A DNA stretch of 11,463 nucleotides, taken from contig JALVPN010000152.1 in the NCBI GenBank assembly GCA_027031765.1, positions 1 through 11,463 on the forward strand. The letters are read 5' to 3'. Under the pieces are notes generated by a model, which saw nothing but the letters and a program-made list of their open reading frames with translations, was not told the DNA's origin and did no database searches. The translations under genes and the position numbers were made by a program. The stretch is from Promethearchaeota archaeon. GTDB taxonomy: Archaea > Asgardarchaeota > Thorarchaeia > Thorarchaeales > Thorarchaeaceae. How positions within the stretch are numbered: the first letter of the stretch is position 1; each line of letters opens with the position of its first letter. This document shows positions 1 to 9,021 of this stretch, one piece after another.

Positions 1-960
1 GCCCTTCCTCCACACCACCACCGTCCTGTCAGCAGACCCGGAGTAGAGGTACCGGTCGTCCACCGCAAGCGCATATACCCAGTGCGAGTGGCCCTTGAGG
101 GTGGTGGCCTTTTCCCAGGAGCCCTTACGCCACACCACCACCGCCCCGTCCAAAGACCCGGAGTAGAGGTGCTGCTCGTCCACTGCAAGCGCCCGTACAC
201 TGTCCGAGTGGCCCTGGAGGGTGGTGGCCTTTTCCCACGAGCCCTTACGCCACACCACCACCGCCCCGTCCAAAGACCCGGAGTAGAGGTACCGGTCGTC
301 CACCGCAAGCGCATATACCCAGTGAGAGTGGCCCTGGAGGGTGGTGGCCTTTTCCCAGGAGCCCTTCCTCCACACCACCACCGTACTGTCACGAGACCCT
401 GAGTAGAGGTACTTGTCGTCCACTGCAAGCGCCAGTACACTGCCCGAGTGGCCCTTGAGGGTGGTGGCCTTTCTCCAGGAGCCCTTCCTCCACACCACCA
501 CTGTCTCATCCCATGACCCGGAGTAGAGGTACTTGTCGTCCACCGCAAGCGCATATACACTGTCCGAGTGGCCCTGGAGGGTGGTGGCCTTTCTCCAGGA
601 GCCCTTCCTCCACACCACCACCGTACTGTCACGAGACCCGGAGTAGAGGTACTTGTCGTCCACTGCAAGTGCCAGTACACTGCCCGAGTGGCCCTCAAGG
701 GTGGTGGTCTTCTCCCAGGAGCCCTTCCTCCACACCACCACTGTTTCATCCCAAGACCCGGAGTAGAGGTACTTGTCGTCCACCGCAAGCGCATACACAC
801 TGTCCGAGTGGCCCTCAAGGGTGGTGGTCTTCTCCCAGGAGCCCTTCCTCCACACCACCACCGTACTGTCACGAGACCCGGAGTAGAGGTACTTGTCGTC
901 CACTGCAAGCGCCAGTACACTGTCCGAGTGGCCCTCGAGGGTGGTGACTGCGATCCATGT
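1..960 (-). repeat. Coding tandem repeat, 120-bp unit x8 (continues off the left edge), each unit one 40-aa WD40 repeat
   Basis: Every second 60-nt line begins gccctt(c/a)c and the units align without gaps. Examples: 601-669 is identical to 841-909, and units 361-480 and 601-720 differ at 8 of 120 positions. Confidence 0.98.
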
Positions 961-1272
961 GTCCATGGCCCAGATGTGGACTGTACCGTCCTTGCACCCT
1001 ACGAAGATGTGCTCGTCATCCCGGACGACTGACAGGACTGGTGAGTCGTGGTGGAGTACTGCGACGACATGTCCCGGCCCCTTCTCCCTGACGAGCACGT
1101 TGCCGTCTTCAGACGCTGAGACCACGTAGCGTGCTGTTGCGCAGATCCCGGCAATCCCCTTGGAGTGGCGTGGCGCGCCGTGTACAATGACACCTGGGCG
1201 CTCCTGCATGGCGCCGTGTACAATGACACCTGGGCGCTCCTGCATGTGTTGTCCCTCGTGGTGCTCCTGCAT
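1..1272 (-). CDS. WD40-repeat (beta-propeller) protein, C-terminus beyond the left edge of the window
   Basis: Manual translation of the minus strand is stop-free from ATG 1272 to position 1: MQEHHEGQHMQERPGVIVHGAMQERPGVIVHGAPRHSKGIAGICATARYVVSASEDGNVLVREKGPGHVVAVLHHDSPVLSVVRDDEHIFVGCKDGTVHIWAMDTWIAVTTLEGHSDSVLALAVDDKYLYSGSRDSTVVVWRKGSWEKTTTLEGH... Canonical GH...S-G-S-x-D...W WD40 signature, with the His/Ser/Asp/Trp tetrad intact in all 8 conserved repeats. An in-frame TGA near 1354 lies upstream. Alternative in-frame ATGs at 1245 and 1209. Confidence 0.95.
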   Translation of the reverse strand, partial: MQEHHEGQHMQERPGVIVHGAMQERPGVIVHGAPRHSKGIAGICATARYVVSASEDGNVLVREKGPGHVVAVLHHDSPVLSVVRDDEHIFVGCKDGTVHIWAMDTWIAVTTLEGHSDSVLALAVDDKYLYSGSRDSTVVVWRKGSWEKTTTLEGHSDSVYALAVDDKYLYSGSWDETVVVWRKGSWEKTTTLEGHSGSVLALAVDDKYLYSGSRDSTVVVWRKGSWRKATTLQGHSDSVYALAVDDKYLYSGSWDETVVVWRKGSWRKATTLKGHSGSVLALAVDDKYLYSGSRDSTVVVWRKGSWEKATTLQGHSHWVYALAVDDRYLYSGSLDGAVVVWRKGSWEKATTLQGHSDSVRALAVDEQHLYSGSLDGAVVVWRKGSWEKATTLKGHSHWVYALAVDDRYLYSGSADRTVVVWRKG

Positions 1273-1285
1273 GTGTTGTCCCTCG
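1175..1285. repeat. Nested tandem duplications over the WD40 start: perfect 36-bp x2 (1175-1210, 1211-1246) and a 23-bp repeat with 27-bp period (1236-1258, 1263-1285)
   Basis: gcgccgtgtacaatgacacctgggcgctcctgcatg occurs twice back to back. gctcctgcatgtgttgtccctcg occurs twice. gctcctgcatg occurs three times. Confidence 0.95.
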
Positions 1286-1435
1286 CAGGTGGTGGGCGTT
1301 TCGCGCCCACATATTGTTTTCGTGTGCCTGCACTGTGCAAGTGAGTGGACTAGTCAGGACTGCGACGACGGGCACATGCAGCAGGTGATGTGCTGAGACC
1401 ATCATGTGTGGGCCGGCGGGCCGGTCGTGGGCGGC

Positions 1436-1526
1436 GTGGCAGCCAGTGCTACTTGGCAGGGCCATACTCATCCCGGTCATACCCGTCCCAGTGTCACGCG
1501 GTGTGGCAGCCAGTGCTACTCGGCAG
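1436..1526. repeat. 24-bp direct repeat pair (1 mismatch) separated by 43 bp, in the divergent intergenic region
   Basis: gtggcagccagtgctactTggcag at 1436-1459 and gtggcagccagtgctactCggcag at 1503-1526. Confidence 0.9.
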
Positions 1527-1542
1527 AGGGGTGTGCAATGGG

Positions 1543-1582
1543 GCAAGAAATAATACTTGCGGGGCAACGTGATGTCTGAGGT
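1543..1582 (+). promoter_or_regulatory. Putative archaeal promoter (TATA-like AAATAATA) and RBS (GAGGT) for the 1589 gene
   Basis: AAATAATA at 1548-1555 is a rare AT-rich stretch in this GC-rich region and lies about 35-40 nt upstream of ATG 1589. It is flanked by the inverted repeat GCAAG/CTTGC. GAGGT is at 1578-1582. Confidence 0.45.
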
Positions 1583-1588
1583 ATTGGT

Positions 1589-2032
1589 ATGCAGAACAGG
1601 GTACCGTTCGTACTCAGTCTTATTGCAGGAGTGATATTCATTTTCCAGTCGTGGACAGGGAGCATTGGGATGCTCCAGTACATCGCGGTCATCCCGGACG
1701 TGGTCCCGGAGCTGGCGCAGTACGAGTGGCTGTTCACGCTGTTGCTGTACGTCCTGACGGCCATTGCAGGCCTTGGTGGTGTTGGAGTGATTGCTGGAGG
1801 CGTGCTGCTCACACGGGGGCGTGTTGGGACCGGCAAGTTCGTGATCGGCCTTGCTGCTGGGATGTCACTGATAGGCGTGCTGGTGAACCTCGGCACGAAC
1901 ATCTGGCTCGGTGGTGCTGTTGGTGCCCTTGACATCCTCATGTTGGGTGGCTCCCTGGCAGCCTTCGTGGCGATAGTGCTCTCCATAGTGGCCCGGAGGA
2001 TGGCAGGCACAGGAGGGACTGCAGAGGAGTAG
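1589..2032 (+). CDS. Hypothetical integral membrane protein (about 4 TM helices, Gly-rich)
   Basis: 147-aa ORF with four long hydrophobic Gly/Ala/Leu/Ile/Val segments, a positively charged loop (TRGRVGTGK) and a basic C-terminal patch (ARR). Promoter-like and RBS-like signals lie upstream. Confidence 0.85.
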   Translation: MQNRVPFVLSLIAGVIFIFQSWTGSIGMLQYIAVIPDVVPELAQYEWLFTLLLYVLTAIAGLGGVGVIAGGVLLTRGRVGTGKFVIGLAAGMSLIGVLVNLGTNIWLGGAVGALDILMLGGSLAAFVAIVLSIVARRMAGTGGTAEE

Positions 2033-2082
2033 GTGCGGTCTGGGCGCACTGACTGGTGGCCCCCAGCTACTGCGTTGGGTCT

Positions 2083-2152
2083 CAGTACAGTACATCGCAT
2101 CACCTCACGTCACAGCACCTCACGTCACAACACGGTACGGTACAGTACAGTT
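2083..2152. repeat. Degenerate pentanucleotide array (C-N-N-Y-A) x14
   Basis: cagta cagta catcg catca cctca cgtca cagca cctca cgtca caaca cggta cggta cagta cagtt. C at position 1 in 14/14 units and A at position 5 in 12/14. Includes the 14-bp repeat cacctcacgtcaca at 2101 and 2116. Confidence 0.85.
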
Positions 2153-2420
2153 GCAGTAGGTGCACCATTGTTGTGTGGCACCGCATGACACGGGATAGAT
2201 AGGCTGCTGGCTGCGTCCGGGTGGCGTGGCCCATGCCAGGCCATTGGGCAGTGGACAGTGTCGACACAGCAGTGGCGGGTCATGGCCTGTGGGGGGATGC
2301 GGGTGGTGTGTGGTGGACGCGGGTCACAGGAGCACTGGGTGGTGGTCACGGCACCGTGCCTGAAATCGAAAGAGTGAAAACGGAGTCACGGTCGCAGGGT
2401 CGTGTGGAGAGTCTGGCGAC

Positions 2421-3494
2421 TTGAGGCTGCCAACGATAGGTGTGCTGGGTTCACACAGCGCTGAGGAGGTCGGCACTGCCGCGAAGGCGGCCGGGTTCCC
2501 GACACTGGTGGTGTGTCAGTCCGGCAGGGAGAAGATGTACACGGTCTACGACAGGCACCTGTTCGACCACATAGTCACGCTTCCGCGGTTTGCGGACATC
2601 ATCACCGACGAGGTGCAGGATCAGCTTGAGGAGCTGGGTGTTGTATGGGTGCCCAACCGGTCGTTCTCTGTGTATGTCGGTTACGATGCGATTGAGAGGG
2701 ACTTCCGCATCCCTGTGTACGGCAACAGGCGGATCTTGCGGATTGAGGAGCGGGGCACGCTGAGAGACCAGTACTGGCTGCTGGAACAGGCCGGTATCAG
2801 GACGCCGCTGCGTTTCCAGCCCGATGAGATTGACCGGCTCGTCATTGTGAAGGTGCAGCAGCGGGCGAGGCCTCTGGAGAGGGCGTTCTTCTATGCGACG
2901 TCCACCGACGAGTACCACGAGCGCGCACGGGCACTGGTCAGGGAGGGGGTAATAGATGAGGAGGCGTTGGAGGCGGCCACCATTGAGGAGTTCATCGTGG
3001 CACCACGGTTCAACGCGAACTTCATCGCGTACGGGATGCGTGAAGAGTTCGGACGCCTCGACCTCGCAGGGTTCGATGACAGGGTGCAGACCAACCTGAC
3101 GGGACTGCTGAACCTGCCAGCAAGGGACCAGCTGAGCCTGTCCATCACGGTGGTCAACGAGGAGGTCGGACACAAGGGCCTGACGATGCGGGAGAGCAAG
3201 AAGCCACTGGTGTACGCTGCTGCCGAGCAGTTCCTCGATGCCGCGGGAGAACACTTCCCACCTGGCATGATAGGCCTCTTCGCCCTCCAGGGGGCCATCA
3301 CAGAGGAGTCCGAGTTCGTCGTCTTTGACGTCAGCCCGAGAGTCCCCGGGGCACCGTGTGTTGGGCCGACCAGCCCGGAGATGCGCAGGCTCTCCCTCAA
3401 ACACGGCAGGCCCGTGCACTCTCCAATGGACCTCTGCATGATTGACATCATGAGGGCGGTCGAGGAGGACAGGCTGGACGAGATAACGACGTAG
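2421..3494 (+). CDS. purP: PurP-family ATP-grasp protein (formate-dependent AICAR formyltransferase/FAICAR synthetase or a PurP-like paralog)
   Basis: N-terminal TIGVLGSHSA, VPNRSFSVYVG, YGNRRILRIEER, VKVQ...ERAFFYA, IEEF and the C-terminal DRLDEITT are characteristic of the archaeal PurP family. TTG start, with GGAG upstream. Located in a purine cluster. Confidence 0.85.
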   Translation: MRLPTIGVLGSHSAEEVGTAAKAAGFPTLVVCQSGREKMYTVYDRHLFDHIVTLPRFADIITDEVQDQLEELGVVWVPNRSFSVYVGYDAIERDFRIPVYGNRRILRIEERGTLRDQYWLLEQAGIRTPLRFQPDEIDRLVIVKVQQRARPLERAFFYATSTDEYHERARALVREGVIDEEALEAATIEEFIVAPRFNANFIAYGMREEFGRLDLAGFDDRVQTNLTGLLNLPARDQLSLSITVVNEEVGHKGLTMRESKKPLVYAAAEQFLDAAGEHFPPGMIGLFALQGAITEESEFVVFDVSPRVPGAPCVGPTSPEMRRLSLKHGRPVHSPMDLCMIDIMRAVEEDRLDEITT

Positions 3495-3649
3495 CAATCA
3501 CCTCCCCACTGCTGTTGGACGTGCTCCTTGACGGCGGCCGCGATGGCAGTCCCTGACCCGGGACGTGAGACAGGGCCACTGACGACCACAGGCTGTCCGG
3601 GAGCAGGCCTGCCCTCAGTGTCGTAAAGGCCCTGCTGTCGAATCCACAT

Positions 3650-3666
3650 CATTCTTAACTGGAATG
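3650..3666 (+). promoter_or_regulatory. Possible TATA-like element (TTCTTAAC) for purC-S, framed by the inverted repeat CATTC/GAATG
   Basis: The most AT-rich stretch of the 212-bp purP-purC gap, about 45-55 nt upstream of ATG 3707. Confidence 0.35.
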
Positions 3667-3706
3667 TACACGACAAGGAGCGAGCCGAGGACGGAAGAGG
3701 ACCCTC

Positions 3707-4684
3707 ATGACAGGAGAGCATTCAGACCTGATCCGAGAGGGAAAGGTGAAACGGGTGCTGAGCGACCCGGCCTCTCCCGACACCATCATCATCGAGTTCA
3801 CGGACGCCGTGACTGCTGGTGACGGTGCGAAGCGTGCGGAGATGCTAGGGAAGGGCAAGCTGGCATGCGAGACCAGTCTGCTGCTGCTCCGCTACCTCCA
3901 GCAGAGGGGGATAGCGACGCACCTGGTCGAGAAGCTCGATGGGCCGAGGCTGCGGTGCCGACGTGTCGAGATACTGCCAGTCGAAGTCGTGTGCAGGAAC
4001 ATTGCTGCCGGGTCCGTGTGCAGACGTTACGGCATAGAGCAGGGGACGGTGTTCAAGAGGCCGGTGGTGGAGTTCTTCCTCAAGGACGATGCCCTGGGTG
4101 ACCCGCTGGTGACCCCGGAGGTGGCGGTCCAGATGGGCCTGGCCACAGAGGACGAGCTGGCCTTCATACGTTCCGTGACGCTCTCGGTCAACTACTACGT
4201 CCGTGAGCTGATGCGTCAGGTCAAGCTCACCCTCGTGGACTTCAAGCTCGAGTTCGGGCGGACACCGGAGGGCGAGCTCCTCGTGGCAGACGAGATATCC
4301 GGCGACACCATGCGGGTCTGGGACGAAACCTCGACCTCACTGGACAAGGACCTCTTCAGGAAGTCGACCGGCGACCTGGTCAGCGCATACGTCGAGCTGC
4401 TGGAGCGCCTTGTGAGTGCCGACACAAAGGCCGTGGGGCCGCGGACGGAGCGCATCGTTGTGGAGGTGATGCCGAAACGGGGGGTCAAGAACCCGCCCGG
4501 TGAGGTCACGATGAAGGCACTGCGCAGGCTCGGGATGAAGGGTGTCCAGGACGTCCGTGTCGGCAAGCTCTTTGTGATATCCCTGGACAGGCCCGTGTCG
4601 CCAGCACTGATGCGCGAACTTGAGGCCATGAACCTGAAGCTGCTGTCAAACCCGGTTGCCGAGACCCACCACGTGAGGTTGTGA
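3707..4684 (+). CDS. purC-purS: Fusion of SAICAR synthetase PurC (about aa 1-237) and FGAM synthetase subunit PurS (about aa 248-325)
   Basis: PurC motifs EGKVKRV, EFTDAVTAGDG, PVEVVCRNIAAGS, EFFLKDDALGDP, LVDFKLEFG, ADEISGDT, LDKDLFR. These are followed in frame by PurS motifs VEVMPKRGVKNPPG, LGMKGVQDVRVGK and KLLSNPV. No stop codon between the domains. Confidence 0.93.
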   Translation: MTGEHSDLIREGKVKRVLSDPASPDTIIIEFTDAVTAGDGAKRAEMLGKGKLACETSLLLLRYLQQRGIATHLVEKLDGPRLRCRRVEILPVEVVCRNIAAGSVCRRYGIEQGTVFKRPVVEFFLKDDALGDPLVTPEVAVQMGLATEDELAFIRSVTLSVNYYVRELMRQVKLTLVDFKLEFGRTPEGELLVADEISGDTMRVWDETSTSLDKDLFRKSTGDLVSAYVELLERLVSADTKAVGPRTERIVVEVMPKRGVKNPPGEVTMKALRRLGMKGVQDVRVGKLFVISLDRPVSPALMRELEAMNLKLLSNPVAETHHVRL

Positions 4685-7569: not shown

Positions 7570-9021
7570 GTGTTGATGGAAAGAGTACTCGTAATCGCTG
7601 GTAGCAAGAGCGACGCACGCATCGTCGAGAAGGTCACCTCCACACTTGACGCCCTCGGCATCACCTACAGGACCGAGTATGCGTCCGCCCACAGGGAGCC
7701 GGACAGGGTGCGGGAGGTAGTCATGGCCTCGCCAGCAGAGGTCATCGTCGCGGTCGCCGGGCTCGCAGCCGCGCTCCCGGGCTTTGTAGCATCGCTCACC
7801 GACAGGCCGGTAATCGGCGTGCCCGTGTCAGCAGCACTCGGGGGACTCGATGCCCTGCTCTCCATCGCCCAGATGCCAAAGGGAGTGCCTGTTGCCACAG
7901 TCGGGATAGACAACGGCCAGAACGCAGCACACCTGGCAGCGAGGATCCTCACTCTGACGGGTACCGTACAGCCGACAACACCACCGCGCAGCTATGCAGA
8001 GGCTGGTGTGGACGAGGGCGCTGTGCAGGCCGGGCTGTCAGTCCTTGCCGAGTACGTACGCAGGTCGTTCACAGAGAACAGGGTGGTCGAGGACTTTGGT
8101 CACTACGCAAACATGGTGCAGGTGCGAGACGACCTCTGCATCGCCATGTCTACGGACGGCGTTGGTAGCAAGATGCTCGTCGCGGAGATGGCCGGTGACT
8201 ACAGTACTGTTGGCATAGACTGTGTGGCCATGAACGTCAACGACCTCATCTGTGTCGGCGCCGACCCCACCGGCTTTGTCGACTACCTGGCCGTGGAGAC
8301 CCCACCACCGGAGGACGTCCTCAGACAGATCGGGGAGGGGCTGCTCAGGGGGTGCCGCGAGGCCGGCATCCCGGTCCTTGGCGGGGAAACGGCGGTCCTC
8401 CCAGAGATGATACGCGGGACGCGCCCTGGCAGGGGCATCGACCTCGCGGGCACGGCGGTCGGTGTCGTCAGTCCCGACGAGGTCATAGACGGCAGGGACA
8501 TCGCGGAAGGGGACATCATTGTCGGGATACCATCGAACGGGCTGCACTCAAACGGGTTCACGCTGGCACGCAAGGTGCTGCTCTCCCAGTATGCCCTCGA
8601 CGACAGGCTGCCATGGGGCAGGACGGTGGCCGAGGAGATGCTCAGGCCCACGAGGATATACGTGGAACACTTCAGGCGCCTGAAGAGAGCAGGCGTGAGG
8701 GTCAATGGCATAGCCCACATCACGGGTGGGGGGCTGCGGAAAGTGCTGAGGCTCGGCCCGTGGCGGTACGTCCTGAACGCCCGGCTGCGGGTGCCCGAAG
8801 TGTTCACACTGATAGCCGAGGTCGCTGACATACCTGACGAGGAGATGTTCACCACATTCAACATGGGCACCGGCCTCATCATGGTAGTCCCGGAGGACGA
8901 CATATCGTCGGCAGTGAGGACGCTTGAGGGCCTTGGAGAGGTACATGTCCTGGGCCATGTGGAGGCACCCGATGATGGGCCTGCAGTTGTGGTCGAAGAG
9001 AGAGGAGTCGTGATCGAGTGA
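7570..9021 (+). CDS. purE-purM: Fusion of PurE (AIR carboxylase/N5-CAIR mutase, about aa 1-127) and AIR synthetase PurM (about aa 141-483)
   Basis: PurE motifs GSKSD, SAHREP, AGLAAALPG, PVIGVP, DALLSIAQMPKGVPVATV, NAAHLA. Linker TLTGTVQPTTPPR. PurM motifs SYAEAGVD, GHYA, STDGVGSK, GIDCVAMNVNDLICVGA, GGETA, GLHSNG, HITGGG, TFNMG. The start could be GTG 7570, TTG 7573 or ATG 7576. Confidence 0.95.
   Translation: MLMERVLVIAGSKSDARIVEKVTSTLDALGITYRTEYASAHREPDRVREVVMASPAEVIVAVAGLAAALPGFVASLTDRPVIGVPVSAALGGLDALLSIAQMPKGVPVATVGIDNGQNAAHLAARILTLTGTVQPTTPPRSYAEAGVDEGAVQAGLSVLAEYVRRSFTENRVVEDFGHYANMVQVRDDLCIAMSTDGVGSKMLVAEMAGDYSTVGIDCVAMNVNDLICVGADPTGFVDYLAVETPPPEDVLRQIGEGLLRGCREAGIPVLGGETAVLPEMIRGTRPGRGIDLAGTAVGVVSPDEVIDGRDIAEGDIIVGIPSNGLHSNGFTLARKVLLSQYALDDRLPWGRTVAEEMLRPTRIYVEHFRRLKRAGVRVNGIAHITGGGLRKVLRLGPWRYVLNARLRVPEVFTLIAEVADIPDEEMFTTFNMGTGLIMVVPEDDISSAVRTLEGLGEVHVLGHVEAPDDGPAVVVEERGVVIE

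Follow-up and report, generated by a model that had tools for sequence, protein, structure and literature searches.

A highly repetitive WD40 array with variation concentrated at top-face positions, and its paralogues, in a hydrothermal-vent archaeon

Positions 1-1272 (minus strand) of the DNA described here would encode the N-terminal portion of a highly repetitive (HR) WD40 beta-propeller protein, cytoplasmic in location, of a hydrothermal-vent archaeon that probably belongs to the Asgard group. The whole stretch analysed, called the window below, covers bases 1 to 11,463 of contig C152 (JALVPN010000152.1), which belongs to a MAG of 2.95 Mb in 229 contigs, 95% complete. In the explanation favoured here, the protein would open with a short tail and two blades that are old and diverged, followed by at least eight young ones, the latter generated by duplication of single units and of two-unit blocks and probably kept alike through exchange within a pool of units shared with no fewer than five or six paralogues. 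The DHSW tetrad and the strand cores would be under strong purifying selection, and the top-face residues 13, 14, 16, 30 and 32 of each unit would be made to differ from blade to blade, probably through diversifying selection. Since a conserved scaffold is combined with a diversified top face, the array is proposed as a modular protein-binding platform, the specificity of which could be altered through five residues per blade as well as through the gain, loss or swap of blades. As a whole, this explanation is given a probability of roughly 0.6.

The open reading frame starts with an ATG at 1272-1270, and the minus-strand translation of 1272-1 gives 424 stop-free residues from 424 codons, being the sole long ORF over 1-960. 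The 3' end of this partial coding sequence is missing because contig C152 ends at base 1, inside the array. The WD40 family of Pfam (PF00400) matched the protein in 8 stretches with an E value of 7.7e-65 (213 bits against a cut-off of 27). The first blade begins at aa 25 and is preceded by a hydrophilic tail of 24 aa, where a perfect 36-nt tandem duplication (1175-1246, minus strand; 2.0 copies, 100% by Tandem Repeats Finder) doubles a 12-residue peptide; the same duplication is found in two other assemblies, L031 and L033. Two diverged WD40 blades follow (aa 25-104; 961-1200, minus strand), delimited by the 40-aa register, the strands of the structure model and blastn, and after them come eight near-identical units of 120 nt, or 40 aa (aa 105-424; 1-960, minus strand). 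When the sequences preceding the genes of C152, C23, C142 and C225 are aligned, a conserved block stands out with a BRE/TATA-like element, CGAAAACAATATGTGG (1307-1322, minus strand), some 40 nt ahead of the ATG; this element may be the promoter.

The upstream ORFs of the WD40 gene gave no Pfam match. The next gene upstream, purP (2421-3494), is placed on the opposite strand and forms part of the archaeal purine operon that Pfam recognizes on C152, so that the neighbours of the gene are purine-biosynthesis genes and the context points to no function. Between the WD40 gene and purP, there is an ORF of 147 aa (1589-2032, plus strand), which has a gene call in three other assemblies as well; it has neither a Pfam nor a PADLOC match. 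The operon itself contains two gene fusions according to Pfam, one joining SAICAR synthetase with PurS (3707-4684) and the other joining PurE (AIR carboxylase) with PurM (AIR synthase) domains (7570-9021). PADLOC returned only a match of the WD40 region to the HEAT-ARM_XIII candidate model and a weak coiled-coil match to LmuB, neither of them informative.

In the register used throughout, units 1 to 4 occupy positions 841-960, 721-840, 601-720 and 481-600, and units 5 to 8 positions 361-480, 241-360, 121-240 and 1-120, all on the minus strand. Tandem Repeats Finder, applied to 1-946, reported a period of 120 (7.9 copies, 85% matches) together with a period of 240 (3.9 copies, 91%), the latter explained by the pairs 3/5, 2/4 and 6/8, which are the units most alike. 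Any two units differ at 8-28 of their 120 nt, and pairwise amino acid identity has a mean of 0.81 and a range of 0.70-0.93, a similarity that is far above chance. The DHSW tetrad (H11, S29, D31, W37) is complete in 8/8 units. The eight-repeat array with a near-invariant scaffold, described earlier in a sequence-only reading of the same DNA, was reproduced residue for residue by translation, the 40-aa register and the codon table. In fact, the residues following GHS (DSVL, DSVY, GSVL, DSVY, GSVL, HWVY, DSVR, HWVY) and those following SGS (RDS, WDE, RDS, WDE, RDS, LDG, LDG, ADR) coincide exactly with the ones listed there, and the codon table equally bears out that a switch often alters 2-3 nt of a codon flanked by identical codons (AGT/TGG, CTG/TAT/CGG, CGT/TGG/TTG/GCT).

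Outside these sites, the units also vary at positions 3, 5, 9, 22-24 and 33, and unit 1 starts with TWIAV instead of SWEKT. With units 2-5 alternating between an A and a B form, no more than about four types of hot spot are represented in the array. From unit 2 to unit 8 (1-840), the neighbours 2-3, 4-5 and 6-8 have the strand-d segment with positions 3, 5 and 9 in common, and the a-c segment alternates between types. Such a mosaic suggests short conversion tracts, or else a mixing of units during assembly.

The location of this variation on the fold was examined with an AlphaFold2 model of the window protein built on an alignment of family members (pLDDT 89.7, pTM 0.84). Each 40-aa blade is modelled as four strands in d-a-b-c register with pLDDT >90, as expected of a WD40 blade: strand d covers positions 4-9, the d-a loop 10-14, strand a 15-20, the a-b loop 21-23, strand b 24-29, the b-c turn 30-32 and strand c 33-38. 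In the model, the variable positions 13, 14 and 16 lie in the d-a loop and at the start of strand a, and positions 30 and 32 in the b-c turn. The top-face hotspots of WD40 proteins are defined as R1, R1-2 and D-1, D-1 being the residue that precedes the tetrad Asp (PMC3419727). D-1 is position 30 of the present unit, and R1 and R1-2, located 14 and 16 residues earlier in the 40-aa unit, are positions 16 and 14. The assignment of the variable sites to the top face, which had been claimed from the letters, thus holds for R1-2 (14), R1 (16) and D-1 (30); it relies on the strand map of the model, the established WD40 topology and the definitions of PMC3419727. Positions 13, 14 and 16 are accordingly modelled as R1-3, R1-2 and R1, and positions 30 and 32 as D-1 and D+1. 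Lesser variation affects strand d (3, 5, 9) and the bottom a-b loop (22-24). When the 26 high-scoring units of the whole genome were considered, entropy peaked at positions 30, 16, 13, 9, 14, 5 and 32, the scaffold staying at about zero, and 24 different hot-spot combinations were counted in those 26 units.

Substitution rates were determined across the repeats, taking positions 13, 14, 16, 30 and 32 as hot spots. With Nei-Gojobori estimates on the eight window units, the scaffold had a dN/dS of 0.10 with a dS of 0.20, and the hot spots reached a dN of 0.80. On these sequence estimates the scaffold is held by strong purifying selection. In a minimum-event count for the window, 0 non-synonymous events were needed at 57.6 scaffold sites, 10 synonymous events at 20.4 sites and 14 non-synonymous events at 12.2 hot-spot sites, the hot-spot rate being 2.3 times the synonymous one (one-sided binomial p=0.03). 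For the 19 most similar family units the same ratio was 2.5 (p=5e-5), and it exceeded 1.5 only at the five hot positions. By three ways of counting, hot-spot dN amounts to 2.3 to 4 times the synonymous rate of the scaffold. Nevertheless, event counts are crude, as they saturate and take no account of recombination, and for this reason diversifying selection at the five top-face positions is called suggested. The comparison across repeats proposed with the first description of the array gives an excess at the hot spots, on counts that are blind to recombination.

These values have to be confronted with a neutral account, in which a young propeller was recently amplified, its scaffold being constrained by folding and its loop residues drifting, with no receptor role. 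No positions of a WD40 protein are less constrained than those of the top face, so that relaxed constraint would explain much of the pattern; moreover, prokaryotic WD40 proteins have commonly amplified their repeats in recent times, and there too the hotspot sites are the variable ones (PMC5587647). The small number of hot-spot types and the simple A/B duplication of units 2-5 would fit such drift, and the excess over the synonymous rate within the window is marginal at p=0.03. What drift alone accounts for less readily is a non-synonymous rate above the synonymous one in all three counts, the several switches that need 2-3 nt in a codon beside identical flanking codons, and the near-unique combination of hot-spot residues per unit over the family. 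The neutral account is considered unlikely on balance, and the binding platform with a diversified top face is preferred; its anatomy is supported, and selection as the cause of the diversity weakly so.

The array is not alone in its genome, where no fewer than eight related loci were found, most of them at the end of a contig. Related arrays are carried by C23, C142 (two genes), C206, C225, C173 and C155, contigs of 2-5 kb with the array at or near the contig end. Complete, less repetitive relatives are encoded on C85 (611 aa) and C196 (632 aa), each with ~14 blades (12-13 unit matches) and no tail, and on C160 (883 aa); internal repeat identity is ~0.5 in the C85 and C196 paralogues and in the relative L010. 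The segment with the N-terminal blades (961-1200) has 75-92% nt identity across C23, C142, C225 and C206 in blastn, and blades that are 85-92% nt identical, together with a conserved upstream block, are common to the window, C23, C142 and C225. That these copies might be strain alleles was ruled out, given that farther upstream their flanks carry the 3' ends of other family members and not the purine operon; as the upstream flanks of C23, C142 and C225 differ from that of the window, the genes are tandem paralogues.

The paralogues draw on a common pool of units. Scaffold nt identity is 0.93 between the units of the window and those of C23 and C225, and 0.94 among the window's own units. Exchange within this pool is partially supported by the synonymous distances: unit scaffold dS is 0.19 between the window and C225 and 0.40 between the window and C206, against 0.39 and 0.93 for the adjacent unique N-terminal segment, whereas for C23 and C142 the unit dS is not below that of the flank, so that the units may be exchanging in part of the family.

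The gene family is lineage-specific. Outside the genome, other genera of the same family gave only weak, generic WD40 matches among 40 relatives, and this is due to a conserved protein of ~380-440 aa present in same-family genomes (L015, 963-2288, plus strand; L017, 1252-2406, minus strand). It has seven canonical WD40 blades, and after them a short helical C-terminal segment with a winged-helix-like look. In the same set, a genome from another family of the order (G025) contains 13 moderately repetitive relatives. A homologue search aimed at longer proteins brought up no fused close relative, all matches being generic WD40 proteins of STAND, kinase and HET-E type with 29-44% identity.

As regards the reliability of the array itself, the printed order and number of units are putative, coming from a short-read assembly. 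The exact PurP protein is present on three other assemblies, all of which break inside or before the array. L031 is 100% identical to the window over the part that it covers. For L033 the identity is likewise 100% across a flank of 3,379 nt, and its array comes without two units (240 nt) and with at least 4 further differences, all inside the array; the absent 240 nt sit exactly between two 75-nt exact repeats, so that collapse and unequal recombination both fit. The difference in repeat number expected between related assemblies is thus observed beside an identical flank, in a form inseparable from assembly error. Within the array the longest exact repeat is 75 nt, and therefore an assembler with k above 75 could thread it correctly; matches to other contigs reach 43 nt at most. 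In the Logan contigs of one hydrothermal vent metagenome run, the array appears in ~180 fragments with a summed word depth of 44-960, as compared with 12.2 in the flank. These contigs neither span nor order the array and give no evidence either way on copy number; nothing came from two further runs, and the exact-pattern scan of metagenome contigs with a 41-mer specific for unit 8 gave no match.

Such data lend themselves to another interpretation, namely that the units are real and their order and number represent a short-read path through several paralogues or strains, in which case no cell would contain the array as printed. The contig ends inside the array, most paralogues lie at the ends of 2-5 kb contigs, and the Logan fragmentation, the uneven depth and the differences in L033 around a gap bordered by 75-nt repeats all agree with a chimera of this kind. 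The difficulty of assembling such repeats has also been documented for NLR genes of the fungus Podospora (PMC12222747). Nevertheless, the repeats are short enough, both inside the array and between contigs, to be threaded at a suitable k, L031 agrees wherever it covers the window, and the conclusions on variation rest on units shorter than one read. A chimeric array is accordingly judged quite unlikely, and it would affect the order and number of the blades in the proposed platform and not the location of their variation. The claim that the protein is rapidly re-specified through repeat recombination stands in part only: the mosaic, the common pool and the 240-nt difference of L033 are in line with it, and none of them is separable from assembly error.

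Since the gene is cut off by the contig end, its C-terminal part has to be deduced from the paralogues. The attempt to join the start of the window to another contig by exact overlap failed, its first 31-127 nt occurring nowhere else in the MAG. In C23 and C142, a linker comes after the array and leads to a degenerate propeller and then to long helices spanning ~430 aa, with a strongly conserved motif at the end. This family tail, a degenerate propeller plus ~430 aa of helices with internal helical repeats, is seen in L022 (C142, 1531-4092, minus strand) and also in C33, C206 and C225. As the window gene is closest to C23, the same architecture is inferred for it, and the missing part would probably consist of the linker, the degenerate propeller and the ~430-aa helical tail, with no NTPase; the complete relatives on C85 and C196, which are tailless, speak against this. 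The tail of the C142 paralogue belongs to no Pfam family, drew a blank in the ESM Atlas feature search and had 0 matches at E<=0.001 in a set of 1.84 billion representative proteins. The model of its tail module has an overall pLDDT of 64 and a pTM of 0.41, the helices themselves being at pLDDT 80-95.

The succession of propellers and long helices raises the alternative of a housekeeping, eukaryote-like scaffold, that is, a coat, tether or adaptor of protocoatomer-like type in an Asgard archaeon. Foldseek gave IFT-A, CPLANE, HOPS and nucleoporin chains as the best rows for the tail module, and the genome has a Pfam match above cut-off to EAP30, of ESCRT-II type, which, with the archaeal purP of the contig, also points to an Asgard archaeon. 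Nevertheless, those rows have a TM of 0.13-0.17 and an rmsd of 20-40 A and therefore reflect domain order only. Moreover, the tail is devoid of relatives in the representative set, same-family genomes are devoid of close relatives of the gene, and a fast-evolving, multi-copy array is unlike a conserved machine. Altogether, a housekeeping scaffold appears highly improbable next to a recognition platform.

The array fits a class already described. 'Highly Repetitive' WD40 proteins of prokaryotes and fungi have a conserved scaffold and variable predicted hotspot sites (Hu et al. 2017, PMC5587647), and the general pattern is published for them. In that work the class is marked by an internal repeat identity of >=0.7 and by diversity concentrated at the predicted hotspot sites R1-2, R1 and D-1; the window array has a mean of 0.81, complete DHSW tetrads and its diversity at those very sites. 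The same survey counted only 63 archaeal WD40 proteins in total (PMC5587647). A member of the class, the WRAP propeller of Nostoc punctiforme (PDB 2YMU), matches the window array at E 5.2e-74. The window gene departs from the proteins described there in having 40-aa units of FBXW7/beta-TrCP type, in lacking a kinase or STAND domain and in being one of a tandem family whose tail is an orphan. By sequence as well as by fold, the array is matched best by FBXW7/Cdc4, beta-TrCP and the designed Tako8/Ika8 (PDB 2OVP, 1P22, 6G6M); the units of Tako8 align without gaps over 40 aa, and the rmsd is ~5.5 A between 8-bladed Tako8 and the window model, which is a truncated one of 10 blades. FBXW7 uses its R1 arginines to bind the phosphodegron (PMC3419727), and that R1 position is a hypervariable one in the window units. 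Compared with F-box proteins, the gene is without an F-box and its blades are far more alike than in any of them.

A further resemblance is to the fungal NWD/HNWD proteins (HET-E, HET-D), which are NACHT-WD40 allorecognition NLRs (Paoletti et al. 2007, PMC1805685; Dyrka et al. 2014, PMC4986451). In HET-E, the pairs 7/9 and 25/27 are variable and under positive selection, one pair on either side of a conserved d-a loop residue and the other around a conserved residue of the b-c turn (PMC1805685), and these pairs are positions 14/16 and 30/32 of the window unit. Both families have about ten members, a pool of highly similar WD units, which here may be evolving in concert, and a near-unique combination per unit. 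Differences are equally clear: the units here have 40 aa and not 42, their identity is lower (77-93% nt), the family is known from sequence alone, and the window gene lacks a NACHT NTPase as well as a HET or other death domain. The proposed parallel with HNWD/HET-E stands for the hot-spot positions and probably for the mode of array evolution, and not for NLR membership, there being no NACHT and no effector upstream. As a separate matter, an origin through a diversity-generating retroelement was rejected, since the hot-spot codon changes use all four bases and the window proteins include no reverse transcriptase domain.

No NACHT/STAND NTPase is found N-terminal of the window repeats, the protein starting 24 aa before the blades, with the promoter-like block ahead of it, and the upstream ORFs being blank in Pfam, and no effector or death domain (HET, PNP_UDP and similar) is found in the window gene or in the tails of its paralogues. 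A scan of a species-genome collection retrieved a single relative, L021 (contig CAZSTY010000033.1, uncultured archaeon), with repeats of the same subtype that are 55-56% identical to the window array. In its ORF (889-3855, plus strand), the repeats are C-terminal of a P-loop STAND-like NTPase, which gives a match to nSTAND_NTPase5 below the Pfam cut-off; one in-frame TGA occurs inside the repeats. L021 thus shares the repeat subtype with the window gene, which has no NTPase, and its own repeats are not highly repetitive. Furthermore, C131 of the window genome encodes an NTPase N-terminus 56% identical to that of L021, and stops at the contig end.

With these elements, a more far-reaching idea can be formulated, in which the tandem genes constitute an NTPase-independent hypervariable repertoire (WD40 face, degenerate propeller and orphan tail) swapping blade cassettes among themselves and with the STAND NTPase receptor, as an Asgard innate immune or self/non-self system, in the prokaryotes nearest to the eukaryotes. 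This is a speculative and rather improbable extension. Under the binding-platform reading itself, partner recognition would be the role of the array, and a host-virus or allorecognition role is pure conjecture.

Near-identical WD40 blades with variable top faces mark the fast-evolving recognition proteins of fungi (HET-E/NWD), and the pattern recurs in STAND and kinase proteins of cyanobacteria. The novelty here lies in the lineage of the host, in an architecture free of NTPase and in a tandem family whose tail is an orphan. WD40 arrays of this type break short-read MAG assemblies, and hence their true extent is systematically under-reported. The blades of the family would offer a natural set of stable, near-symmetric 40-aa modules with varied binding residues. 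If the proposed reading is true, this mode of generating binding diversity would extend to the archaeal relatives of eukaryotes, in the form of an NTPase-free, multi-gene family with an orphan tail.
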